Positions 18,653 through 61,319 of a stretch of 64,000 nt of DNA are shown in pieces. A program made the position numbers and the translations under genes. Origin of the DNA: Candidatus Micrarchaeota archaeon. GTDB taxonomy: Archaea > Micrarchaeota > Micrarchaeia > Micrarchaeales > CABMGC01. Under the pieces are notes generated by a model. It saw nothing but the letters and a program-made list of their open reading frames with translations, did no database searches and was not told the DNA's origin. The stretch spans positions 9,544 through 73,543 of the forward strand of contig JAKAVK010000018.1 of NCBI GenBank assembly GCA_021817325.1. The letters are read 5' to 3'. Position 1 is the stretch's first letter, and every line of letters starts with the position of its first letter.

Positions 18653-19030
18653 TCAGCAGCCTGCAGGTATCGAAGCAATTCCCGAAGTGCCTGAACCTGC
18701 GCTGCTGATTATAATATTTATCAGCCCAGGAGCGATGAGCACAAGTATTATGCCCACTATGCCTCCTATTATCATGCCTATGGACCATCCCTGCAGGTTG
18801 CCTCTCATATTGCCTGCTGCGGGCAGCAGGTGCGCCAGGGCGTAGAGCACTGCACCGACTATGAAGAGCAGCAGCGCTATGTAAGCAACGAAGCTGCGTA
18901 CCACCTGGACGATGGAGCAGATTGAGCTTGTAATCGGGGTTGCGGTTGCAGCATATGCAGTCATGCTGCCGGTTAGCATCAGCAGCATCGCACCATATGC
19001 TATAACCCTTGCTCTGCCAATCATAATCAT
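18653..19030 (-). CDS. VirB2/TrbC/CedA1-like pilin, copy B
   Basis: Start chosen at MIMIGRAR, giving 125 aa. Signal-like N-terminus ending AYAATA, then helix 1 ICSIVQVVRSFVAYIALLLFIVGAVLYALAHLL. Basic loop PAAGNMRGNLQGW, helix 2 SIGMIIGGIVGIILVLIAPGLINII, Gly/Ser tail ending AGC. Two-helix hairpin layout of T4SS pilins. Confidence 0.7.
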   Translation of the reverse strand: MIMIGRARVIAYGAMLLMLTGSMTAYAATATPITSSICSIVQVVRSFVAYIALLLFIVGAVLYALAHLLPAAGNMRGNLQGWSIGMIIGGIVGIILVLIAPGLINIIISSAGSGTSGIASIPAGC

Positions 19031-19160: not shown

Positions 19161-19541
19161 TCAGCAGCCTCCGCTTATACTGGTTATAGACGTGTTACCT
19201 CCAGCGCCCACTATCAGGTTTATCAGTCCTGGAGCAACAAGCACCAGTATTATGCCTACGATTCCTCCAATCAGCATACCGATAGACCATCCCTGCAGGT
19301 TTCCCCTCAGGTTACCTGCTGCTGGCAGGAAGTGTGCTATAGCATACAACACACCGCCTATTATGAAAAGCAGCAGTGCTATGAAGGCTATGAAGGTTCT
19401 CACAACTGCGACAACACTGCATATGGCAGACGTAGCCGTCGTGGTCACCGTGGCTCCAGCAAAATATGTTGCAGCCAGGCTGCCACCTATCACTACTATA
19501 TACAGTAGTCTCAGAAATCTCATCAACTTCAATTTATTCAT
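19161..19541 (-). CDS. VirB2/TrbC/CedA1-like pilin, copy A (first gene of locus 1)
   Basis: 126-aa ORF. Signal-like N-terminus ...AATYFAGA, helix 1 ICSVVAVVRTFIAFIALLLFIIGGVLYAIAHFL and loop PAAGNLRGNLQGW. Helix 2 SIGMLIGGIVGIILVLVAPGLINLIV, tail GAGGNTSITSISGGC. About 80 percent identical to copy B over the helical core (hand alignment). Confidence 0.75.
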   Translation of the reverse strand: MNKLKLMRFLRLLYIVVIGGSLAATYFAGATVTTTATSAICSVVAVVRTFIAFIALLLFIIGGVLYAIAHFLPAAGNLRGNLQGWSIGMLIGGIVGIILVLVAPGLINLIVGAGGNTSITSISGGC

Positions 19542-19715: not shown

Positions 19716-21641
19716 GTGCAGGATGGAAGGAAAGGCAACGTTTATGCGATAGTGCTTCTGATAGCCTTGGTGCTGTTTATCCTGATGGACGTCCAGGCAA
19801 ACACCGTAGCTTCGATATCAGATCAAGCATTCTACATGCGTGTTATCTCTGCGGTACTGCTGTTGCTTCTTGTGTGCCTATACGCTATAAGAGAACCAAG
19901 TCAAAAAATAATATCCTATAAGTACTCCTTCTTCCTGACATTCACGGCGTTGATCGCAGCATCAGCGGCTCAGTTCATTGTCGAAAAGCAGCTATCAGTG
20001 AGCCTGCTCATAGAGACCTTCTCATTAGCGTATACACTGTATTATTACATCCCGATAATGCTGGTAACAGTACTTCTTGCGTGTGCAGGTGCATATTTTA
20101 CTTACAAGAAGAACATCCTGCTGGCGATTCTATTCCTGGTAATAGCATTTTCCATATTTATTATACAAAACTTCGTTTTTCAATACGGATATATAGCATC
20201 AGACGAAATGGTGCTTTCATATTATACCCTGCCTATCTTGGCCAATCACAGCAATCCCTATTCGTATTCTATTGCAAGCACGATGTACGGTATGGTCAAG
20301 AACCCGGGCATACACATAACGCTTACCACAACCAATCAATACAACAGTGTGATGGACTATCCAGCGCTCTTCTTCCTGTCTTCATACCCTTTCTATCTAG
20401 CATTTCCCTACGGCATGACCAGTCTGGATAAGGTCATAACCCCATTGACCAATGCAATATGGGCATTCTTATTGGTTGTCGTGCTAGCTTTCTGTCTGCC
20501 TAAAGAAGAGCTTCTGAAGCCCAAATTCGCTTTGATAGTGTTTGTAGCGCTTGTATTCCTTAGTAAGACTTCGCCTGTTGTAATACTGGGATCTGCTCTC
20601 CTAATCCTATGCTACCAGAAGCTGGACAGCAGATACTCATGGGCCTTCATCGGCCTTGCGGTTTCATTGCAGGAACAGCTCTGGTTCCCCTGCGTATTAT
20701 TACTGCTATATGCATTCAACAATACTGGTTATAAGAAAGGGTTGAGGATGACCATGTACACAATAGCGGTTTTCCTGCTCATAAATTCATACTTCATAGT
20801 CCTAAATCCTGTTGCATTCTTCAACGATGTCTTTGCTCCGCTGAACACCTATATAATGCCTAATACCGGCTCCCAAATAGGCTACTACATATTGACAACG
20901 TATCATGTGCTCACTCCTGCACTGAACAGGCTTTTCGAACTGGCCATGCTACTTCTAGCACTCTTCTTCCTGTATCTGAACAAGAAGGAGCTAGTGGGTC
21001 TATTCAGCTTTATTCCTTACTTATTCTTAAGCCATGCCTTAATACCCTACTACACGCTTCCTGCGCTCCTCTTCGCGTTCTCACTATATGCGAGGGGCAG
21101 AAAGGAGAACAGAGGATGGCTTCGCGGACTGATGGGTACTGTTGTTGCCAAATCAGCTTTCTACGCTGTTGTAATTGCCGTGTTTGTGCTATGTTGTGTG
21201 GCGATCTACTATTCACATCTGGCATACGCTTCCACATTCAATATTACAATAACAAACCAGACGATGGACTATAATGGCACTGCGGCAATATACTCTGCAG
21301 AATTACACCACAGCGGACCGGTTCCTAATGCAATATATTTCGGAGTTCTCGGTCTATCAAATTGGACGGTGTACTCATACGGCTTCTCGCTTTCCCAGAT
21401 ACTGGGGGGCAACAAAACTGGGTGTAACTCCTATTCGTGTGTGGAAGAAACAAACAGGATAACACTGACCTGGAGCAACTCATCGTATGAGATAAAGGCT
21501 ACAATACCATCAAATTCTGAGATAAGCTACATCAGACCCGTTCTTTATACCGGCGCGTATTATTACACTCCCAACGTGATCTACGGTGGCAGGAGCCCCC
21601 TAAATGCGCCTCCTCCTAAGAGTGCGACTACTTTAAGGTAG
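19716..21641 (+). CDS. Large polytopic membrane protein with C-terminal ectodomain (possible GT-C-type glycosyltransferase), paralog A
   Basis: 641-aa ORF (GTG start in the track) with more than 10 predicted TM helices. C-terminal roughly 150 aa carry N-x-S/T sequons. Paralogous to 22614..24578. No AglB WWDYG motif seen. Confidence 0.55.
   Translation: MQDGRKGNVYAIVLLIALVLFILMDVQANTVASISDQAFYMRVISAVLLLLLVCLYAIREPSQKIISYKYSFFLTFTALIAASAAQFIVEKQLSVSLLIETFSLAYTLYYYIPIMLVTVLLACAGAYFTYKKNILLAILFLVIAFSIFIIQNFVFQYGYIASDEMVLSYYTLPILANHSNPYSYSIASTMYGMVKNPGIHITLTTTNQYNSVMDYPALFFLSSYPFYLAFPYGMTSLDKVITPLTNAIWAFLLVVVLAFCLPKEELLKPKFALIVFVALVFLSKTSPVVILGSALLILCYQKLDSRYSWAFIGLAVSLQEQLWFPCVLLLLYAFNNTGYKKGLRMTMYTIAVFLLINSYFIVLNPVAFFNDVFAPLNTYIMPNTGSQIGYYILTTYHVLTPALNRLFELAMLLLALFFLYLNKKELVGLFSFIPYLFLSHALIPYYTLPALLFAFSLYARGRKENRGWLRGLMGTVVAKSAFYAVVIAVFVLCCVAIYYSHLAYASTFNITITNQTMDYNGTAAIYSAELHHSGPVPNAIYFGVLGLSNWTVYSYGFSLSQILGGNKTGCNSYSCVEETNRITLTWSNSSYEIKATIPSNSEISYIRPVLYTGAYYYTPNVIYGGRSPLNAPPPKSATTLR
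20591..20689 (+). repeat. 99-bp tract identical to 23522..23620
   Basis: atctgctctcctaatcctatgctaccagaag...caggaacagctctggttccc read identically in both paralogs. It encodes SALLILCYQKLDSRYSWAFIGLAVSLQEQLWFP. Flanking sequence is clearly diverged. Confidence 0.9.
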
Positions 21642-22533: not shown

Positions 22534-22613
22534 AATAGCACCAATAAAATCTCTCTGCTTTAAGATTTAAAACTATCGCAAGAAAAGTTATTAAAACAAA
22601 ATAACTACTATAT

Positions 22614-24578
22614 ATGGTAACTTTCATGCAAACTAAGACTAATTACGACAAGCTATACTCGCTTGAACTGTCAATTGCGATAATCATATTCCTTGTCCTA
22701 TTATTCCCCGGATTCGCGGATCAGTCAACCATATATGGGGAACTACTTACGGGTATAGTACTATATACTGTATTTCTGTTGCTTCTTTTTGCGGCGTATA
22801 CGTCAAAGCACGCATACGGCCATATTAGGGCATTCTTGTATCTATACAACGCTATATTCCTGCTTCTTCTCGTATCATTAATGTCGATTTTCCTTACAAA
22901 ACCTGCAGTACTCTCACTAGCAATGATCCTGAACATGATCATAACGCTTGCAACCCAGTATTATGGCGCTTTCCTATTTTCCGTGCTATCTATATTTATT
23001 GCATCCGTCGGCACGTATCTCCTGCGCAGTAAAAACGAACAGTTCCACAAATACGGATATATAACACTATGGCTGATACTGGTCGTACTAATAGTCGAAT
23101 GGTTTTATGTTTCACACTACGTGATTCCAGATGACGAGATGCTCCAGCCCGTATTCGCCTTCCAGGAGTTATCCCACGGCTTAAATCCATACGCTGTTTC
23201 GTTTGCCGGGAAGATGTTCAATGCGTCAAAGTATTACGGTGCGGCTGTTACCAAGCTAACTACGAATTCATATATCGGCACGTTTTCATATCCCTTCCTA
23301 TATGAAATTATATCGATCCCCTTTTTCGCCTTCCTGCCCCAAACAGTATATAATCTTACAGCAATAGATTTTCCAACAGAGTCGCTGCTATTCTTATTCA
23401 TTATGATTGTGGCACTCCTATTCAATACAAATAAAAGGAGCGTGCTGAAGCCAAAATTTACCCTCATAATCTTCCTCTCTTTCCTAATCGCTCTCAACCC
23501 GTCTCCAATCCTGTACCTTTTATCTGCTCTCCTAATCCTATGCTACCAGAAGCTGGACAGCAGATACTCATGGGCCTTCATCGGCCTTGCGGTTTCATTG
23601 CAGGAACAGCTCTGGTTCCCTTCTGCCTTGCTGATTCTCTACTACGTGAATAATAATAGTTTTCAATCTAACGCAAGAATGTTGACTGGCGTAATCGCAG
23701 TTTTCCTGCTGTTTAATGGATATTTCATATTCGCTAACCTGCCCGCATACTTGGGGTCCATATTCTCGACAGCAATATCCTATCAACTACCGAACATGAT
23801 AGCCCCAATAGGCTATTTTATACTCACGTCATACCACGTTCAGACCACTGCACTAAACGATGTATTCATGCTTGTCATGCTGTTCCTTGCCGGTGTGTTC
23901 ACATACCTTAACAAGAAGGAGTTAGTCGCGATATTCAGCTTCGTTCCGTACCTCTTTCTTCCGCATTCGCTGGTAATCTACTATGCTCTGCCTGCTCTTC
24001 TGTTTTCTTTTATTCTGTTTACCGACATGCCAAAAGAACGTACTGGCTGGTTAAGGAGACATGTACTACATACAAATAGCCTAAGATACGCATTTTACCT
24101 GTTTATTGCAATGACTTTTTTTGCGTGTATTGCAGTTATATACTATTCACATCTAAATTACCTTAATGAATTTAATTTCACTATAGTCAATCAGAGTGTA
24201 TCAATAAGCGGCAATAACACAATTTATACCGGAACTTTGTTGTATCACGAACCAGTTAAAAGTATTGTATACCTGGGCATGTACGTAGAATCGGCAAACA
24301 TAATAGACATCGGTGTGTATTTGACCGGCTTCTCGCTGTCGCAGCTATTGGCTGGAAATGCATCTCAATGCGTTTCTTACAGCTGTATGCAGAACATGAA
24401 TGAGATAAGCTTAAATGAAAGCAATTCCTCGTTCAAGATAAACGCAACATTGTCGCCATTCATGGCCAAATCCGCTAAAAACTCAACAATCCAGTTGCCA
24501 ATAAACTTTGTAAAGGTCGTAGTTTACAATGGCAGATATTATTATGCATCTAATATGTCAATGTCTAATGATACATAA
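22614..24578 (+). CDS. Large polytopic membrane protein with C-terminal ectodomain, paralog B
   Basis: 654-aa ORF with the same architecture as 19716..21641. Shared blocks KPKF(A/T)LI, FIPYLFL, YYSHL(A/N)Y and GFSLSQ(I/L)L. Confidence 0.55.
   Translation: MVTFMQTKTNYDKLYSLELSIAIIIFLVLLFPGFADQSTIYGELLTGIVLYTVFLLLLFAAYTSKHAYGHIRAFLYLYNAIFLLLLVSLMSIFLTKPAVLSLAMILNMIITLATQYYGAFLFSVLSIFIASVGTYLLRSKNEQFHKYGYITLWLILVVLIVEWFYVSHYVIPDDEMLQPVFAFQELSHGLNPYAVSFAGKMFNASKYYGAAVTKLTTNSYIGTFSYPFLYEIISIPFFAFLPQTVYNLTAIDFPTESLLFLFIMIVALLFNTNKRSVLKPKFTLIIFLSFLIALNPSPILYLLSALLILCYQKLDSRYSWAFIGLAVSLQEQLWFPSALLILYYVNNNSFQSNARMLTGVIAVFLLFNGYFIFANLPAYLGSIFSTAISYQLPNMIAPIGYFILTSYHVQTTALNDVFMLVMLFLAGVFTYLNKKELVAIFSFVPYLFLPHSLVIYYALPALLFSFILFTDMPKERTGWLRRHVLHTNSLRYAFYLFIAMTFFACIAVIYYSHLNYLNEFNFTIVNQSVSISGNNTIYTGTLLYHEPVKSIVYLGMYVESANIIDIGVYLTGFSLSQLLAGNASQCVSYSCMQNMNEISLNESNSSFKINATLSPFMAKSAKNSTIQLPINFVKVVVYNGRYYYASNMSMSNDT
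23522..23620 (+). repeat. 99-bp tract identical to 20591..20689
   Basis: See the partner repeat. Same codon phase in both genes (offset mod 3 = 2 from each start). Direct orientation, 2931 bp apart, flanking moxR. Confidence 0.9.
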
Positions 24579-24604
24579 GAATATCCGACTAAAGATGACA
24601 ACTT

Positions 24605-25306
24605 ATGGCGTATGACGATTTCACTGTTGTGCTACCCACATTAAACGAGGCCAAAAACATAGCGCCAATAATAAAGGGAATAAGGACTTACAGGAGGATA
24701 AGGATACTGGTTATGGATGATGGATCCACTGACGGAACGTGCGATATAGTTAAGAAATTAGCAAAGAAGTACAGAAACATCTCACTGGTTAATAGGAAAG
24801 AACTAAATTTACAGAAAGGGCTGACTGCGAGCGTGATTGACGGGTTCAAAAAAACAAAAACCAAATACGCAATAGTTATGGACGCTGATATGCAGCATCC
24901 TGTCGAAAAGGTGGGGGAGCTGGCATCTGCGCTGTTAGAAGGAGCGGACCTTGCCGTTGCAGTCAGGACCAAGATCTCAAACTGGCCATTCTACAGAAAG
25001 CTCATTTCAAAAATTCTGATTACCTTGGGCTATCTTGTATTACTGCTTAGAGGAGATGAGAGGTGTGGGGATATATTTTCTGGATTCTTCGGTATAAGGC
25101 GTGATGCCTTTACCAAAACGTATTCAAAGAACCACACCAGGTTCGTGCCCGGCGGATATAAAGTACTTTTCGACTTCTTGAAATGCATAAGCAGTGGGAG
25201 CCTAACCATAGCTGAAATCCCATACACATTCGGAATAAGGAAAGCCGATTCCTCCAAAGCTGGAATTAAACAAGGGCTGTTAGTGCTAAAGTCTTTTATC
25301 ACATGA
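24605..25306 (+). CDS. GT2 glycosyltransferase, dolichyl/polyprenyl-phosphate hexose synthase (Dpm1-like)
   Basis: 233-aa ORF. VVLPTLNEAKNI, VMDDGSTDGT and DADMQHP (DxD-type) motifs typical of Dpm1/GtrB-like GT2 enzymes. Confidence 0.8.
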   Translation: MAYDDFTVVLPTLNEAKNIAPIIKGIRTYRRIRILVMDDGSTDGTCDIVKKLAKKYRNISLVNRKELNLQKGLTASVIDGFKKTKTKYAIVMDADMQHPVEKVGELASALLEGADLAVAVRTKISNWPFYRKLISKILITLGYLVLLLRGDERCGDIFSGFFGIRRDAFTKTYSKNHTRFVPGGYKVLFDFLKCISSGSLTIAEIPYTFGIRKADSSKAGIKQGLLVLKSFIT

Positions 25307-25428
25307 CGGCATGGCGAATTAATCACCAGGATTAGGCACATCTCCATATCGTTGATCACACTCAAAATAACATTTCCGTCAATGGTCTTGCAAATGTATT
25401 TATCATTTAAATATTCCCAATTAAATGA

Positions 25429-26970
25429 ATGTCTATGCGGAAAGCTCTACTAAACGATAAGTTCCTAATTGCAGCCATCATAATATCAATTCTATACATG
25501 AGTTGCTGCTTCCTGCTTTATAATTACAGCTTCCAGGGCTTCGAACGTATATTTTTTGACATCGGTATAGAAACCTATAACATGTACTGGCATCTGCACG
25601 GGGCTCTGTACACGAACCCGTTCCAATTCCAATTCATTGTATTTGCTAATCACATCTCCCCATTTTTCGTCCTAATCCTGCCGCTTTTTGCACTGGACCA
25701 AAATGCAATGACACTGGTGTTTATCCAGGACATGTTTCTCGCAGCAACAAGCGTGGTGGCGTATTTAACAGGCCGTCAGTTAATCAAGAATGACCGGATA
25801 GCGTTCTATTTCTTTATCCTATTCCTATTTAGCCCAGGGATAAGTGCATTGGCCGTTTATGACTTTCACGCTGAGGCATTCGTGCCTATGTTCGTAATAC
25901 TCTCCTTCTACTTCTATACAAAGGGCAAAATCAAGTACTTTGTGATGAGCTACTTGCTGCTCTTAATGACTATTGAAGTTGCCTACTTTCTAGGCGCAGC
26001 GCTTCTTCTCGGACTGCTTGCTTATGAGATTCAATATAAAAAATATGGCGTTGAGCCTGACGCCTTAAGAGTCAGAAGGCGCCACATTCTATATGCGGGC
26101 TTTATTATGACCATCGCTACCGCCATCGCATACTACGCGATATCCGGCCAGATAAGTGCGAGTTACGCTGGAGTATCTTACTATAAACTGACCCCATATC
26201 TTCGCCTTGCAAATTATGTTTCCGGCCAGATCAACGCGATAGCCAATCCTTCGATAGTAAACACAACTATCTCCCAGACATATCCGGCAGGCCTTGCAGG
26301 AGTGACGATATTGGTTCTACAATTTGGTGGAGCTTCATTATTTTCACCAATATCAACACTACTCTTGTTATCTCCCTGGCTTGGAGAAGTTTTTATAGTT
26401 CATAATCTGAGTTTTACCGGAATACTCTACCAATATTATGGGTTTTTTGCTGGAAATTGTTTTGTCGCAGCAATTCTTGGATATCTTGTTGTCTATCGGA
26501 GGTCGGATCACCGATCAAGGTACCCTAGTCTGAAGGAGAGGATTTTGGCAAAGCTTCCCTCCACAATAATGATAATCGGCATTACGATATTCCTATATAC
26601 TGACCTCATCATCTTTGGGTACCTGCTTTCCGGAGAGCCAGCGGCAAACTCAGCATCCTTATCACTTGCCATTGCAGCAATACCCCAAAATGCGGTAGTA
26701 ATGACACAGTCAACCTTATCTACCCATATGGCAAATTTTTATCAACTAGAAATGCCGCCTACTGAATCGTTAAGATGGTTCGAGCCCAGGAACGCCAGCA
26801 ACACAGATTTGTTTTGGGCGCAGCCCCAATACATACTTATAGACAAAAATACTTACGATTATACACAGGCATTCAATACTACGCAATTTAACGTGTATTC
26901 CTATATGCGTTCCAACTATACTGAGATCTACAACTCATCAGGCGTGTATTTATACGAGATAAAACGATAA
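25429..26970 (+). CDS. DUF2079-like polytopic membrane protein (predicted GT-C glycosyltransferase)
   Basis: 513-aa ORF. N-terminal FDIGIETYNMYWHLHG and FANHISPFFVLILPLFAL resemble the DUF2079 signature. Paralog of 28699..30240, which is the same length. Confidence 0.6.
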   Translation: MSMRKALLNDKFLIAAIIISILYMSCCFLLYNYSFQGFERIFFDIGIETYNMYWHLHGALYTNPFQFQFIVFANHISPFFVLILPLFALDQNAMTLVFIQDMFLAATSVVAYLTGRQLIKNDRIAFYFFILFLFSPGISALAVYDFHAEAFVPMFVILSFYFYTKGKIKYFVMSYLLLLMTIEVAYFLGAALLLGLLAYEIQYKKYGVEPDALRVRRRHILYAGFIMTIATAIAYYAISGQISASYAGVSYYKLTPYLRLANYVSGQINAIANPSIVNTTISQTYPAGLAGVTILVLQFGGASLFSPISTLLLLSPWLGEVFIVHNLSFTGILYQYYGFFAGNCFVAAILGYLVVYRRSDHRSRYPSLKERILAKLPSTIMIIGITIFLYTDLIIFGYLLSGEPAANSASLSLAIAAIPQNAVVMTQSTLSTHMANFYQLEMPPTESLRWFEPRNASNTDLFWAQPQYILIDKNTYDYTQAFNTTQFNVYSYMRSNYTEIYNSSGVYLYEIKR

Positions 26971-27134
26971 GCTAGTAATGCTGCTATACTGTTACGTAAG
27001 TGTAGTATTACCGGGCTGATAGCCTAGGCAGCATGCGCTACTATGAAGAATAATCTTGCGGTGGTTTAATGATGCACATCAAACCGGCTGGCCGGACAGC
27101 ATGGTTTAAGCAATGTTTTGATTCAGTCTCTATC

Positions 27135-27550
27135 TTACATCTCTACACCATCAATGTAAAAAATGGAGGTAGATGAGAAGGAAAAGTAAAGGCGGGCAGT
27201 AATAGCTAATACCGCAGATCCTAAGCAGCTTGAGGCTAGGCGCTGCCCATTACGGCGCCGAGAATGCCGCAAGATCGCTGCAGGAAGAGCTCTGGTTCCC
27301 GATCGCTCTAATCATACTTTACTATGCGAATAATAATGCTAATCCAATCTCAATATGCTAATTGGAGTTACCTCACAACCCCAATGGCTTACCAAAAGCA
27401 ATAAATAATTCCTATGCGGGAGGTATAACATATCTGGAACATACATCTATGTTCCAAATGATACCCCGCGATAAACAGTATAGACCAAAACCATCAAAAG
27501 AGGAAGGCACCACATATATGGTGCTTCATATGTATCAAACCCTATACTAA
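27135..27550 (+). pseudogene. Mosaic of gene fragments: rpoF 5' region copy, pelota internal fragment, decayed fragment of the 641/654-aa paralog family
   Basis: 27135-27217 resembles 27711-27800 (rpoF upstream region, SD and first codons). 27219-27281 matches pelota 33537-33599 at 62/63 nt. From 27279 the sequence matches the distal end of the 99-bp tract (tgcaggaAgagctctggttccc) and encodes QEELWFPIALIILYYANNN before stops and frameshifts. Confidence 0.7.
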
Positions 27551-27750
27551 GTCTGGCTGAAACTGCCGTGTCTCATTAAGGTCCTTACACATAAAACCAA
27601 ATATAATGCTATCCCGTCCAACATTGGTTATCAATGTGCCTATTTATGCCCAGGGCTTGAATTTACTCCCTAGACAATATGCATTGTAGAAAGGCTTAAA
27701 TTATGCTCTATTTTATATATTTACATCCATAATATAAAGTGGAGGTAAAT

Positions 27751-28092
27751 ATGATAGGAAAAGGAAAGGCGGACAGCAGGTTAGCTACGATACCACAAGT
27801 TCTCGAGATACTTGATGCCAGACAGGAGGCCGGCGGAGAGCTGGGTTACGAACAGGAGCTCACCCACACATATGCAAAGATGTTCGCAAAAATAGATGCA
27901 AAGGAAGCGGAGAAGATGAAGAAGGAAATAGTCGAACTTGGCATTAGCGAGAAAACAGCAGTGAAAATAATAGAGATAATGCCATCAGATATAATCCAAC
28001 TGCGCCAAACAGTCATTATAGAAAAGAAGAGCGTAGATGAAGAAATCCTTTTAAAGGTAATGGAAGTCGTTAGCAGGTACAGAGGAAAGTGA
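27751..28092 (+). CDS. rpoF: DNA-directed RNA polymerase subunit Rpo4 (RpoF)
   Basis: 113 aa from the ATG at 27751, preceded by GGAGGT. LATIPQVLEILDARQE...ISEKTAVKIIEIMPSD matches the Rpo4/F family. The conserved archaeal DUF655 neighbour follows. Confidence 0.8.
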   Translation: MIGKGKADSRLATIPQVLEILDARQEAGGELGYEQELTHTYAKMFAKIDAKEAEKMKKEIVELGISEKTAVKIIEIMPSDIIQLRQTVIIEKKSVDEEILLKVMEVVSRYRGK

Positions 28093-28114: not shown

Positions 28115-28702
28115 ATGGAAGAGAGTGGGATGCGAAGGGAGGAGTTGGAGGAATATGCAGTGGTACTGGATTACCTGCCTATCGGCAGATCCTCTTCCGC
28201 AAGGGCTGAGCCGGTAGTTCAGCTACTCGGGGAAAACAAATTCACGCTCTTGGAAGCTGTTCCAAAAGGTAGTGAGTTGCGGGTAGGCGAGAGTGCATAC
28301 ATAGGCAAGGGGGAGAGAGACAAGATATCCCTAATAAAAAGCAGACTAAACTACAATGACCTAACAGAAGGTGCAAAGAAGGAGTTGCCAGAAGCAATAT
28401 CCATGATAATCAGGAAGAACGAGAAGAAGTTTGTTGACCTATTCAACAATGCATCTTCACTGAATATACGGATGCATTCTCTTGAGCTGCTCCCGAATGT
28501 CGGCAAGAAGCACCTCAAGGCAATACTCGAAGCACGCGAGGAGAAGCCATTCGAAAGTTTTGCAGATATAGCTGCAAGGGTGCCTTTGCTTCAGGATCCA
28601 ATAAAATTGATAGTGGAAAGGATAATAGAGGAGCTTAAAGGCAACAGCCGCTTCTACCTTCTTACAAAGCCGCCTGCGGCAGAGCACTACGATAGGCGTT
28701 AA
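28115..28702 (+). CDS. DUF655-family protein (conserved rpoF neighbour, putative nucleic-acid binding)
   Basis: EEYAVVLDYLPIGRS...VVQLLGENKFTLLEAVPK plus a C-terminal helix-hairpin-helix-like region. ATG at 28115; the track ORF starts at a GTG at 28106. Confidence 0.7.
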   Translation: MEESGMRREELEEYAVVLDYLPIGRSSSARAEPVVQLLGENKFTLLEAVPKGSELRVGESAYIGKGERDKISLIKSRLNYNDLTEGAKKELPEAISMIIRKNEKKFVDLFNNASSLNIRMHSLELLPNVGKKHLKAILEAREEKPFESFADIAARVPLLQDPIKLIVERIIEELKGNSRFYLLTKPPAAEHYDRR

Positions 28703-30240
28703 CTTGATATTCTCTGATATATCATCAGGCCCGACTCGTTATAAATTAGGGCATAGCTATTATTTACATAACTAAGAATCGTTGGCTGTAGTGCGCTGCC
28801 ATTTTTCATCTTCGTCGTATTTTCATAAGCCACTATGTATTCCGGTGAAAACCAATGAAGAGTCATTCCACGAGGCGAGAAAAGAGTGTCACCCACTACT
28901 ACACCAGGCTGAAATTCAATATTTCTAATGCGGTACAGATGCGGCAGTATTATATCCTGACTCATTACCGTGGCGTTTTGTGGGATTATTGCAATGCCGC
29001 TTTTAATTAGCGTGAAGTTATGCGATGGTGTATTTATTATCGTGACATAGCTCAATATCAAAGCAGATGCCAAGCCTATAGCAAGGAGAACGGATAACGA
29101 GAGTATAGTGGAAGTAATCATCACCCTCTCTCTTTTTATATCCATCTTAAACCAGAAAATGTGTTTATCTTTTTTGATTATAAGCATACCAAGTATTGCG
29201 GCCACAAAGCTACCGCCGACCACGTAAGCGTAGTATTGACTGTAATAGTTTCCGAGCACAGAGTCATGGAGGAGGAATAGACCCACGAGCCAAGGCAGTA
29301 AGAGAATAACTGCCAAGGAGGGGCGCTTTAATGATGTTATGCCAAAGCCAAAGAAAGCTATTGCTATTCCCGCTATCTCGCTGAGTAACAACTCGCTAGG
29401 ATTATACGGCACCCCTATGAAAATAGAGGACGCGATTGCCCCTAAGTTTATGAAGCTGCCGTACCTCATAAGGGGCGAAAGTTCGTAATACGGTATCTGC
29501 GGATATACAGAGACAAGATAACTTGATATAACATAATATAAGCATATGGCAAGAGCCGTAAGTACGAGTCCATTAACGAGTAATTTAAATCGCGCCGTGC
29601 GCAGCATGTCAGATGCGCCGCCATTATCATGTTTATGCGATAACTCGTAGGCTAGCAGGCCGAGCAGCAATGTGCCTGCTACAAAAGGCGCATCTTCCAT
29701 TATAGATAGCAATATAATATAGCTTGCCAGGAAGCCTACCTTCCTCCCCTTCATATAAAAGTAAAATGAAAGCACGTAGAATAGTGGCATAAACGCCTCA
29801 CTGTGGATTGGAAAATACAGCATGCCTGTCACCCCAGGATTGAGCAGATATGCGACTGCCATTGCGAACCCGATCTGGGGCATTTTTATCAGATCTTTTG
29901 TCACTACGTAAACTAAAATCGCAACGATTGTGATTGCAATGTCCTGTATCGCTATTAACGTTATTGGATACTGATACAAGTAGAACAGAGGCAGCAAAAG
30001 CATGCTGAAAGGGGAGATATGATTTGCAAATATAAGGTATTGCACTACTCCTTCAAGACCGGGGACCATCGTGCCATGCAGATGCCAATACGCACTATAA
30101 GTCCATATGCCTATGTCATAAAAATTAACTTGGTACGTGGTAAATATAAGATTGCCATAGTATATCCAGTACACAGTAAATGCCAATGTCAGAAGTGCTA
30201 CAGCTGCAAGATATCTATCCTGCAATATTTGCTTGTACAT
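28699..30240 (-). CDS. DUF2079-like polytopic membrane protein, second copy (inverted)
   Basis: 513-aa ORF. FYDIGIWTYSAYWHLHG and FANHISPFSMLLLPLFYL align with 25429..26970. Confidence 0.6.
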   Translation of the reverse strand: MYKQILQDRYLAAVALLTLAFTVYWIYYGNLIFTTYQVNFYDIGIWTYSAYWHLHGTMVPGLEGVVQYLIFANHISPFSMLLLPLFYLYQYPITLIAIQDIAITIVAILVYVVTKDLIKMPQIGFAMAVAYLLNPGVTGMLYFPIHSEAFMPLFYVLSFYFYMKGRKVGFLASYIILLSIMEDAPFVAGTLLLGLLAYELSHKHDNGGASDMLRTARFKLLVNGLVLTALAICLYYVISSYLVSVYPQIPYYELSPLMRYGSFINLGAIASSIFIGVPYNPSELLLSEIAGIAIAFFGFGITSLKRPSLAVILLLPWLVGLFLLHDSVLGNYYSQYYAYVVGGSFVAAILGMLIIKKDKHIFWFKMDIKRERVMITSTILSLSVLLAIGLASALILSYVTIINTPSHNFTLIKSGIAIIPQNATVMSQDIILPHLYRIRNIEFQPGVVVGDTLFSPRGMTLHWFSPEYIVAYENTTKMKNGSALQPTILSYVNNSYALIYNESGLMIYQRISS

Positions 30241-31907: not shown

Positions 31908-32032
31908 ACCATTTTGGTATGTTGTAAAACCAGCCAGCATACCGCAAGAATAAAGGAAGATTCGTGCCTGGTGGCTATAAGGTACTGTTTGATTTCCTAA
32001 AATGCCTGCTACATGGATCTTTCTTCAGCTAA
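31908..32032 (+). pseudogene. Remnant of a Dpm1-like GT2 gene (C-terminal fragment)
   Basis: Hand translation AYRKNKGRFVPGGYKVLFDFLKCLLHGSFFS* aligns with TYSKNHTRFVPGGYKVLFDFLKCISSGS of 24605..25306. No upstream catalytic domain is present. Confidence 0.6.
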
Positions 32033-32685
32033 CGCGTGCCCTTGCGGCCAGCTCCCCGTCCTGCAGCAGAGTTCCTTATCCTTCTCAATGCGTATACGTA
32101 GATCAGGTAAAGTATTATTGCGAAAACCCCTATCGCAGCAAATATCAAGGTGGCGCTAGTCGCGTTGCCAATATAATAGCCGAAGATTATAAGTGCAACA
32201 TCCCAGATCACCGTGCCTGCGAATGACGTCAGAAAAAACTTCTTCTGCGGCATCTCCGCGAATCCTGCAGGGAAGCTTATCAGCCCGCGCACCACCGGTA
32301 TGAACCTGCTTATGAAGACTGCGAACGAACCGTTGCTCTCAAACCACCTGTCAAAGGCGTCTAGTGTGCTCTGCTTGATATGGAAGAGCTTGAGATGCTT
32401 GTAGACGATATCCTTCCCTACGAAATACGCGATATAGTAATCGATCTCAAAACCTATTACGCTGCCTATTATGGCCGCCGTGGCCCCTAGTGCCATGTTC
32501 AGCTGCCCCTGTGCTGCAAGGTAGCCTATCGCAGGCAGCACGACCTCGCTGGGTACCGGAAGCGATGCTGACTCAAGCAGCATCAGTGCAAGTATGGCGT
32601 AGTACTTGTACGCCACTATCAAATGCAGAAGATATGCTGCACTGGCTGACGCTGCAGTAGCATTTACGCCAGCAAGAAATACCAT
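32029..32685 (-). CDS. DedA-family membrane protein
   Basis: LESASLPVPSEVVLPAIGY and FISRFIPVVRGLISFPAGFAEMP are DedA/SNARE-associated signatures. Start set at MVFLAG to avoid overlap with pelota. Confidence 0.75.
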   Translation of the reverse strand: MVFLAGVNATAASASAAYLLHLIVAYKYYAILALMLLESASLPVPSEVVLPAIGYLAAQGQLNMALGATAAIIGSVIGFEIDYYIAYFVGKDIVYKHLKLFHIKQSTLDAFDRWFESNGSFAVFISRFIPVVRGLISFPAGFAEMPQKKFFLTSFAGTVIWDVALIIFGYYIGNATSATLIFAAIGVFAIILYLIYVYALRRIRNSAAGRGAGRKGTR

Positions 32686-32749: not shown

Positions 32750-33769
32750 ATGCGCATAATACGCCTCAATGGCGTTACCAACTTCCTCAAGGTTGAGCCC
32801 CAGTCATTCGACGATCTGTATCTCCTGGCCATGGTCATCTCCACCGGAGATAAGGTGGAGGCGCACAGCTACAGGCGGTTCAAGGCAAACGAGAGGGATA
32901 CGGGAGAGCAGAAGGAGGTCTTCATAAGGCTGCATATAGAGAAGGTGGAGATAGATAAGGGCGCAGGCAGGCTGCGCCTCATGGGCAGCATACTGGATGG
33001 CCATCCGCAGGAGTTCGTGAGCATAGGTAGCCATCACACAATAAACGTGGCACCAGGCGACATCATAGACGTGCAGAAGGAGGAGTGGAAGAGCTACATA
33101 ATTCGCAGGCTCAAGCAGGCGGTCGCAGATTCCAGAAAGCCGCGCCTGGGAATTGTGGTCCTAGACGATGAAAAGGCGCTATTCTCATACGTGCGGGGCT
33201 ACGGCATAGACCTGGCAAACGAACTGTACAGCCACCTTAGCAAGAGGATGAAGGAGAAAGACTTTGCAAAGCAGCGCAGCGAGTACTTCAACGAGATAAT
33301 AGGCTATGTCAATAACATGTCTGTTGATATGGTGATACTCGCAGGCCCGGGATTCACAAAGGATGACATTAAAAGATACATATCTGATAATCACATCGAG
33401 GTCAAGAAGAGGCTCTTCTATCTTCCGGCAAGCGATGCGGAGAGATCCGGGATCAGGGAGGTTATGCGCAGCAACGCAGTCGCCGAGCTTCTTGAGAGCG
33501 AGCATGTGAAGAAGGAGTTCGAGTATCTGAATGAGTTCCTAAGCAGCTTGAGGCTAGGCGCTGCCCATTACGGCGCCGAGAATGTCGCAAGATCGCTGCG
33601 GGAGGGCCGTCCGGAAAGGGTTCTTGTGAACGACTCTGCAATAAACGAGAAGCAGGTGAGGGAAGTGCTCGACATCGCCGACAAGAAAGGAGTAAGGATA
33701 GAGATATTCAACTCCGAGGATGACGCAGGGATGCAGCTAAGGAACTTCAAGGACATTGCCTGCATCTGA
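32750..33769 (+). CDS. pelA: Pelota (Dom34) mRNA surveillance / ribosome rescue factor
   Basis: MRIIRLNG...FLKVEPQSFDDLYLL N-terminus and eRF1-like central and C-terminal domains (VILAGPGFTKDD). About 339 aa from the ATG at 32750. Confidence 0.85.
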   Translation: MRIIRLNGVTNFLKVEPQSFDDLYLLAMVISTGDKVEAHSYRRFKANERDTGEQKEVFIRLHIEKVEIDKGAGRLRLMGSILDGHPQEFVSIGSHHTINVAPGDIIDVQKEEWKSYIIRRLKQAVADSRKPRLGIVVLDDEKALFSYVRGYGIDLANELYSHLSKRMKEKDFAKQRSEYFNEIIGYVNNMSVDMVILAGPGFTKDDIKRYISDNHIEVKKRLFYLPASDAERSGIREVMRSNAVAELLESEHVKKEFEYLNEFLSSLRLGAAHYGAENVARSLREGRPERVLVNDSAINEKQVREVLDIADKKGVRIEIFNSEDDAGMQLRNFKDIACI

Positions 33770-61216: not shown

Positions 61217-61220
61217 AGTG

Positions 61221-61319
61221 CGCCGGGGTAGGGATTTGAACCCTAACTTCCTTGCGGAAACCAGATCTCGAGTTTCGCCTGAATGCAACTGGCGCGTTAC
61301 CGGATTCCGCCACCCCGGC
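61221..61319 (-). tRNA. tRNA-Ser (anticodon CGA) with putative 15-nt intron at a non-canonical position
   Basis: Reverse complement: acceptor GCCGGGG/CCCCGGC, discriminator G, long variable arm TTCC-GCAA-GGAA, T arm TAGGG-TTCAAAT-CCCTA. The anticodon region CCAG[TTGCATTCAGGCGAA]A-CTCGAGA-TCTGG folds canonically only if 15 nt in the 5' anticodon stem (about position 30/31) are removed. Confidence 0.65.

Follow-up and report, generated by a model that had tools for sequence, protein, structure and literature searches.

Genomic setting and composition of the spacer upstream of rpoF

The 64-kb window (the whole stretch of DNA analyzed here, to which all coordinates refer) contains rpoF on the plus strand (ATG at 27751), encoding an Rpb4-family protein that one source names RNA polymerase subunit F, and upstream of it a 770-bp spacer (26971-27740) bordered on its own upstream side by DUF2079a, a DUF2079 membrane-protein gene (25429-26970; Pfam). 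The preliminary description of this DNA had proposed a comparison with related genomes to recover the ancestral order. In the nearest relatives, which are Micrarchaeota (DPANN) MAGs, that order is MoxR(-), rpoF(+), DUF655(+) ... L21e(-), TBP(+), VTT(-), pelota(+) across about 25 loci, with MoxR adjoining rpoF from 47-280 bp upstream. In the window, an island has been inserted at this point: MoxR-rpoF adjacency in the relatives and Pfam matches delimit a lineage-specific insertion of 5.2 kb (22534-27740, plus strand) that comprises p654, which encodes a 654-aa protein, GT2, DUF2079a, and the spacer. DUF2079b and AsnC are inserted after DUF655 in the window compared to the relatives, and the sister species L091 carries a GT2 gene upstream of rpoF instead. 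Judged by gene content and order, the scar described below sits in a variable, insertion-prone island of membrane and glycosyltransferase genes between MoxR and rpoF. A remnant of the ancestral rpoF promoter left beside MoxR was considered and rejected, as the spacer at 22534-22613 lacks the AAAGGCTTAAAT motif.

The protein encoded by p654 belongs to a 641/654-aa family that has no Pfam match even at an E value of ≤1 and takes its "glycosylation" label only from its neighbors (GT2 and DUF2079). The paralogous 641-aa gene (19716-21641, plus strand) overlaps the 3' end of MoxR with its own 3' end; its homologue in relatives lies on the minus strand between a 244-aa gene and MoxR, which points to a local inversion of the 641-aa gene in this lineage. 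The paralog proteins are only 39% identical, and their genes share a 99-bp tract (20591-20689 and 23522-23620) with 100% identity, best read as the product of recent gene conversion between the paralogs. The tract encodes the most conserved motif of the family (ALLILCYQKLDSRYSWAFIGLAVSLQEQLWFP), and its two copies form direct repeats flanking MoxR. Elsewhere in the window, two adjacent small minus-strand ORFs (~125 aa each), tandem paralogs, contain a 177-nt direct repeat with 77% identity (18717-18893 and 19219-19395), and ARAGORN predicts a 100-nt tRNA at 61220-61319 with an undetermined four-base anticodon (tcag), probably a misparsed intron-containing archaeal tRNA.

The preliminary description had seen in the spacer a mosaic assembled from three genes located elsewhere in the window, with every piece keeping the orientation of its source. 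The self-blastn that it suggested as a check, in which the spacer was queried against the 64-kb window, indeed returned three significant matches, all plus/plus, to which we refer as pieces 1, 2, and 3. Their scores of 50, 113, and 44.6 bits all lie above the best score obtained with 200 dinucleotide shuffles of the spacer (maximum, 39.2 bits; mean, 27.7; standard deviation, 2.2), and all three matches thus exceed chance.

Piece 1 (27128-27216, plus strand) is a diverged copy of the rpoF 5' region, slightly offset from the 27135-27217 originally assigned to it. It matches positions 27706-27797 (5' UTR, Shine-Dalgarno [SD] sequence, and first 17 codons) in 71 of 95 alignment columns (75%; E = 4e-8), so that the copy runs from just 3' of the TATA box through the SD to about 17 codons, possibly extending to 27102 through a weak similarity (48% identity). 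The copy now carries indels and a stop (MRRKSKGGQ followed by the stop codon). Its source, defined by orthologue alignment, is the resident promoter, 5' UTR, SD (GGAGGT), and first codons at 27689-27797 on the plus strand; a conserved AGAAAGGCTTAAAT at 27688-27701 is invariant in the window, L091, L092, and L011 and has one exact occurrence in the window. In the promoter alignment, the derived sequence GGCGG(G/A)CAG is common to piece 1 and the resident rpoF and does not occur in L091, L092, or L011. Piece 1 shares this derived state with the resident rpoF only and was therefore copied within this lineage. Earlier, piece 1 had been described as a copy of the rpoF promoter together with the SD and first codons. 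The 5' region, SD, and first codons are present, but the copy has AGCAATGTTTTGA where four species have an invariant BRE/TATA motif, AGAAAGGCTTAAA, upstream of rpoF. This alteration makes a transcript from the "duplicated promoter" doubtful, and by its sequence, the duplicated promoter is probably dead.

Piece 2, the pelota patch (27216-27285, with a core at 27219-27281; plus strand), was delimited by blastn and strain comparison and copies pelota codons 275-297, whose source tract (FLSSLRLGAAHYGAENVARSLRE) lies at 33534-33603 on the same strand. The two are identical at 67 of 70 positions (E = 4e-27), and between the core and 33537-33599 there is exactly one mismatch, at 27267, in agreement with the count given in the preliminary description. 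A blastx search of the spacer likewise recovered pelota residues 274-297 (E = 2.6e-8). The pelota gene itself aligns over its full length with orthologues in relatives.

Piece 3 (27279-27340, plus strand; blastn and blastx) is a p654-like patch with the conserved motif (S)LQEELWFPIALIILYYANNN. As had been proposed, it continues from 27279 with the end of the 99-bp tract and downstream codons of the 641/654-aa family: positions 27279-27337 match 45 of 59 positions at 23599-23657 (plus strand) in the 654-aa paralog (E = 2e-6), and 27279-27300 match 21 of 22 positions at 20668-20689, the end of the tract in the 641-aa paralog. The segment at 23599-23657, which overlaps the end of the 99-bp tract, is the closest extant source-like sequence, and none of the 641/654-aa family members searched was closer to piece 3 than p654. 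By blastx, the spacer matches p654 residues 326-349 with 75% identity over 24 aa (E = 1.5e-7). Piece 3 is in frame with the pelota piece, giving the fused reading ILSSLRLGAAHYGAENAARSLQEELWFPIALIILYYANNNANPISIC followed by a stop; this in-frame continuation from pelota to paralog is a one-in-three coincidence.

For the rest of the spacer (27341-27688; searched as 27341-27705), no blastn, blastx, or tblastx match was found in the window or in relatives, and the spacer had no match among plasmid and phage sequences. An older tandem duplication inside the spacer (27018-27059 versus 27301-27339), hinted at by a repeat search, was discarded when its local alignment proved no better than those of shuffles. 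The unexplained part contains a near-perfect palindrome at 27432-27459 with 12-bp arms (ATCTGGAACATA and TATGTTCCAAAT) and a 4-nt loop; a strain single nucleotide polymorphism (SNP) at 27432 affects the outer base of its left arm.

A fourth fragment lies outside the spacer. When all ORFs were compared with the 64-kb window by tblastn, only three intergenic gene fragments emerged, two in the spacer and one GT2-like, all in one 5-kb neighborhood. The GT2-like patch (GRFVPGGYKVLFDFLKCLLHGS; 31937-32041, plus strand) shows 63% identity over 35 aa (tblastn; E = 2e-9) and, at the DNA level, 79% identity over 31958-32005 versus 25139-25186. It is flanked by TBP and VTT, which are convergent, and overlaps the 3' end of VTT. 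TBP and VTT are adjacent in about 12 related genomes, and since this adjacency is ancestral, the GT2 fragment is an ectopic patch rather than a gene wrecked in situ. At ~50-100 nt, it falls into one class with pieces 1 and 3, in both kind and age. With four patches of 50-110 nt, all sense oriented, in a 5-kb interval, the locus could conceivably be subject to a repair activity of its own that copies patches, such as that of a primase-polymerase.

Junctions, strain variation, and the 70-bp direct repeat

Both ends of the pelota patch lie on short shared sequences. At the left junction, rpoF CAAGTTCTC meets pelota GAGTTCCTA, and AGTTC is common to both (contexts: rpoF ...CCACAAGTTCTCGAG, pelota ...AATGAGTTCCTAAGC, mosaic ...CCGCAGATCCTAAGC). 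The mosaic now reads AG(A)TCC at this point, and the change from AGTTC to AGATC needs one later substitution, at 27218. At the right junction, pelota CGCTGCGGGA meets paralog CATTGCAGGA, and the two overlap in TGC at 27279-27281, with GGA following after one base, as the preliminary description had read it (contexts: pelota ...GATCGCTGCGGGAGG, paralogs ...TTTCATTGCAGGAAC, mosaic GATCGCTGCAGGAAG). Two marks of filler DNA are thus present: at both junctions, the recipient ends share microhomology with the flanks of the template, and the insert is nearly identical to a sequence elsewhere in the genome (67/70 today and 62/62 in the ancestral core).

The exact RpoF protein is found on 22 public contigs. 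The order DUF2079a-mosaic-rpoF is contiguous in L001-L004, L009, and L010, which derive from different ENA samples and an NCBI MAG and are 98.6-99.99% identical; these at least six independent assemblies carry strain-specific SNPs in and around the mosaic, and both copies of the pelota repeat lie on a single contig in L004. The pelota patch is present in all strains found and is fixed in the species. Beyond this species, the mosaic is absent from all others found: the loci of the RpoF homologues at 77% (L091) and 67% (L092) identity have short spacers without it, homologues of DUF2079a are only 46-47% identical and occur in other contexts, and scans of JGI metagenomes with the repeat core and with RpoF returned nothing close.

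Among strains, the tract within the pelota gene is invariant. The copy in the spacer has acquired clade-private substitutions, namely, 27233 A>G and 27276 C>T in L004 and L009 and 27267 T>C in the clade of the window, and two of these three would change an amino acid (S to L and R to G). An invariant gene tract beside a copy with clade-private changes indicates that the copy has drifted freely since the strains split. Just before strain divergence, the core of the ancestral patch was identical to pelota at 62 of 62 positions. The adjoining spacer has a strain SNP density of 3.2%, the highest in the region. Positions 26588-27233 are free of strain SNPs; this block includes the last 380 nt of DUF2079a, and because it starts inside that gene, it is a low-diversity haplotype block rather than evidence of constraint. 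For the same reason, we dismissed constraint on piece 1 as an explanation of the absence of SNPs from 26971-27216 (P = 0.003). DUF2079b (28699-30240, minus strand) has 41 variable sites (2.7%) and a 3-nt indel among strains, compared with a diversity of 0.7-0.9% in rpoF and DUF655 and 0.65% in DUF2079a; a divergent allele, recombination, or diversifying selection may underlie this excess in the membrane protein.

The patches differ in their divergence from their sources. Identity is 75% for piece 1, 76% for piece 3, and 79% for the GT2 patch, compared to ~97-100% for the pelota piece, which differs from piece 1 with a P value of 2e-4 and from piece 3 with a P value of 1e-3 (Fisher). Piece 1, piece 3, and the GT2 patch are each more diverged than the pelota patch (P = 2e-4 to 7e-3), and there is no difference among those three. 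On this sequence divergence, the pelota patch is young and the rpoF, paralog, and GT2 patches are older, and the preliminary description's view that events of different ages are superimposed here is upheld by these comparisons and by the 62-nt identity of the ancestral core.

The pelota patch and its source form a direct repeat of 70 bp (27216-27285 and 33534-33603) on either side of a 6.3-kb block with the core genes rpoF, DUF655, L21e, and TBP and most of pelota, and several assemblies contain recombinant junctions at this repeat. L005, a k141 contig of 6,459 bp whose ends overlap by 141 bp, closes the block via a hybrid repeat, forming a 6,318-bp circle or a tandem junction; the chimeric 309-aa pelota of L005 is found on one contig only. 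The reciprocal deletion junction, which skips the block, occurs in L102 (a 90-kb MAG contig; GCA_027363435.1) and in L103 (556 bp, from a different strain and sample), with a crossover that falls after 27233 and before the equivalent of position 27276, and the Logan contigs L006-L008 break at the repeat. The recombinant junctions could represent either real recombination or mis-resolution by the assembler. That the 70-bp repeats really recombine in natural populations, with both reciprocal products captured in assemblies, seems doubtful to us; if they do, the consequence would be copy-number heterogeneity or an excised circle with essential genes in a DPANN archaeon. In either case, the repeat makes assemblers or cells skip or circularize a block with rpoF, TBP, L21e, and pelota, and MAGs of this species may falsely seem to lack these four genes, as L102 does.

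Function and origin of the mosaic

Fixation in all strains seen, the joining of the pelota frame to the paralog frame, and the 67/70 complementarity that a putative minus-strand transcript would have to pelota mRNA could together be taken to indicate a functional element, whether a chimeric small protein (a 43-aa ORF at 27230-27361), a sense decoy RNA, or an antisense RNA against the pelota, rpoF, p641, or p654 mRNAs. We regard such a role as very improbable. The 62-nt pelota patch has taken up its three clade-private substitutions, two of them amino-acid changing, the BRE/TATA motif has been lost in the copy, and the element is absent outside this species. Spacer ORFs are short only and are called as genes in no full-length public assembly, the 43-aa ORF, which starts with TTG and has no SD, included. 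Searches of the spacer with Rfam covariance models gave best E values of 0.37 and 0.47, far below gathering scores and with no family assigned, and no tRNA was found in it; RNA folding of both strands was nothing unusual (z-scores of -1.33 and +0.21). The spacer mosaic shows no sign of function and reveals no new gene, RNA, or system.

From the three homologies, their common orientation, the microhomologies at the junctions, the difference in age, fixation in the species, and the drift of the pelota copy, all of which are observed, we infer a repair mechanism and an accompanying deletion. The spacer region is probably a nonfunctional patchwork scar, consisting of filler DNA left by microhomology-mediated repair or template switching. 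We propose that a break or stalled fork arose between two older patches shortly before the present strains diverged. The 3' end ...CAGTTC would then have annealed to GAGTTC in pelota, on the same strand and 6.3 kb away, and ~65 nt of pelota would have been copied by microhomology-primed synthesis until the new end ...GCTGC re-annealed on the TGCAGGA of the paralog patch. The result would be a templated insertion generated by synthesis-dependent microhomology-mediated end joining (MMEJ) or template switching; the DNA that had separated the older patches was probably lost. Earlier events of this type probably also produced the older patches (the ~90-nt rpoF 5' end and the ~60-nt p654-like piece) and the GT2 patch (31937-32041). 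All four patches are in direct orientation, which is consistent with same-strand template switching, and the position of both junctions on microhomologies fits the microhomology-mediated illegitimate recombination or template switching that the preliminary description had suggested. Against this account, it is somewhat surprising that independent events should place three pieces side by side, and the left microhomology requires the later substitution at 27218. The deletion and the order of events are also not observed, as no preinsertion allele or intermediate state was found (all strains have the patch, and the nearest other species lack the whole spacer).

An alternative hypothesis is decay in situ: the site would once have held a duplicated rpoF and, as part of a cassette, a third p654-like gene, and successive deletions would have reduced them to the fragments now seen. 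Related to this is the link drawn in the preliminary description between the mosaic and the loss of a third glycosylation cassette. Two paralog pairs (p641/p654 and DUF2079a/b) occur at the locus, the island differs from species to species, piece 3 is the family motif in a form closest to p654, and filler DNA likewise assumes a deletion between pieces 1 and 3. However, the homology of piece 3 extends over ~60 nt (~24 codons) with sharp ends, and the next 365 nt (27341-27705) are unmatched even though piece 3 itself still retains 76% identity. This sharp stop at about 27340, with nothing beyond it, is what short patches would leave rather than the wreck of a lost cassette. Homology to the other sources breaks off abruptly as well. 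The GT2 fragment, 4.6 kb away between the ancestrally adjacent TBP and VTT, is ectopic and cannot derive from the decay of a cassette in situ, and no relative has a gene at this position. We therefore consider decay in situ rather unlikely and do not retain the link to a lost cassette. A single event of fork stalling and template switching/microhomology-mediated break-induced replication (FoSTeS/MMBIR), in which a nascent strand switched serially from rpoF to pelota to p654 and laid down all pieces at once, would explain why the pieces abut in direct orientation, with 3-5-nt microhomologies and sources all within ~7 kb. It is nevertheless unlikely, for it predicts equal ages, in conflict with identities of 75-76% versus ~97-100%, unless pieces 1 and 3 were copied from unseen templates.

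The same conflict burdens a tandem duplication of the 6.3-kb rpoF-to-pelota block, joining pelota codon 297 to 27279, after which the first copy would have lost everything between rpoF codon 17 and pelota codon 275. This topology gives the exact order of piece 1, pelota piece, and 27279...rpoF, and a tandem or circle junction was assembled in L005, but piece 1 and the pelota piece should then be of equal age, and the predicted homology of 26971-27127 to the sequence upstream of the resident promoter is absent (against 27279-27705, 81 of 500 shuffles do equally well). In L005, the hybrid repeat more plausibly resulted from the 70-bp repeat than gave rise to it, and we hold this duplication to be quite unlikely. 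Least probable of all, to the point of being very nearly dismissible, is a chimera made by the metagenome assembler, an artifact that the preliminary description had considered. The source is metagenomic, and the 70-bp repeat does yield alternative junctions in L005, L102, and L103; yet L001-L004, L009, and L010, which stem from different samples and have strain SNPs of their own, all show the mosaic together with both flanks, and L004 spans both copies. Two further candidates were rejected. A diversity-generating retroelement would not account for an ancestral core without differences and for present changes (T>C, A>G, and C>T) confined to the noncoding copy; no reverse transcriptase was found among the neighboring genes scanned, which cover part of the window. 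An att-bounded mobile element is at odds with a block (rpoF-DUF655-...-L21e-TBP-VTT-pelota) whose order is conserved in ~12-25 relatives and in which no integrase was seen.

Comparison with known repair products and repeats

The mosaic is a real, fixed, nonfunctional scar of recombination and repair. It belongs to a known kind, can be dated well, and is unusually tidy. Read as filler DNA, it would provide a clean natural example of microhomology-primed templated repair, dated by strain data, in an uncultivated DPANN archaeon; the DNA-repair behavior of DPANN archaea is essentially unknown.

The closest likeness is to templated insertions at MMEJ junctions, as in synthesis-dependent MMEJ and polymerase-theta scars of eukaryotes and in archaeal cases. 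Like these, the pelota patch is a short cis tract from a nearby locus in direct orientation, with 3-5-nt microhomologies on both sides, nonfunctional and then drifting. Polymerase-theta insertions are usually under 30 nt. At ~65 nt, the patch is longer than these typical insertions and than the 1-2-bp indels of Saccharolobus, and its template lies 6.3 kb away. MMEJ has been experimentally established in archaea (Haloferax volcanii; PMC12281630), and the archaeal primase PriSL of Saccharolobus anneals 2-4-nt microhomologies and polymerizes across discontinuous templates (PMC12019639). Repair products in S. islandicus are mostly 1-2-bp indels (PMC12019639), and templated insertions of ~65 nt in archaea are not reported in either study (PMC12281630 and PMC12019639). 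In contrast to these systems, any link to an enzyme in DPANN archaea would be putative, and all strains found already carry the pelota patch.

The mosaic also resembles the products of FoSTeS/MMBIR in that segments from loci a few kilobases apart are concatenated at microhomologies. FoSTeS/MMBIR is a serial replicative template switching that produces complex rearrangements. Unlike such products, the segments of the mosaic differ in age, which requires more than one event, and measure tens of nucleotides rather than kilobases, with no fixed copy-number change of large blocks. Gene relics in reduced genomes are similar in being short, stop-ridden coding pieces in a spacer, but the pieces of the mosaic come from three genes that are still intact nearby and are not collinear remains at an original site. 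Finally, the 70-bp near-identical direct repeat around a 6.3-kb block, with circle- and deletion-type junctions in assemblies, recalls the att repeats of integrated elements; in contrast to these, it encloses a block of core genes in ancestral order, with no integrase seen, and the repeat copies an internal segment of pelota.
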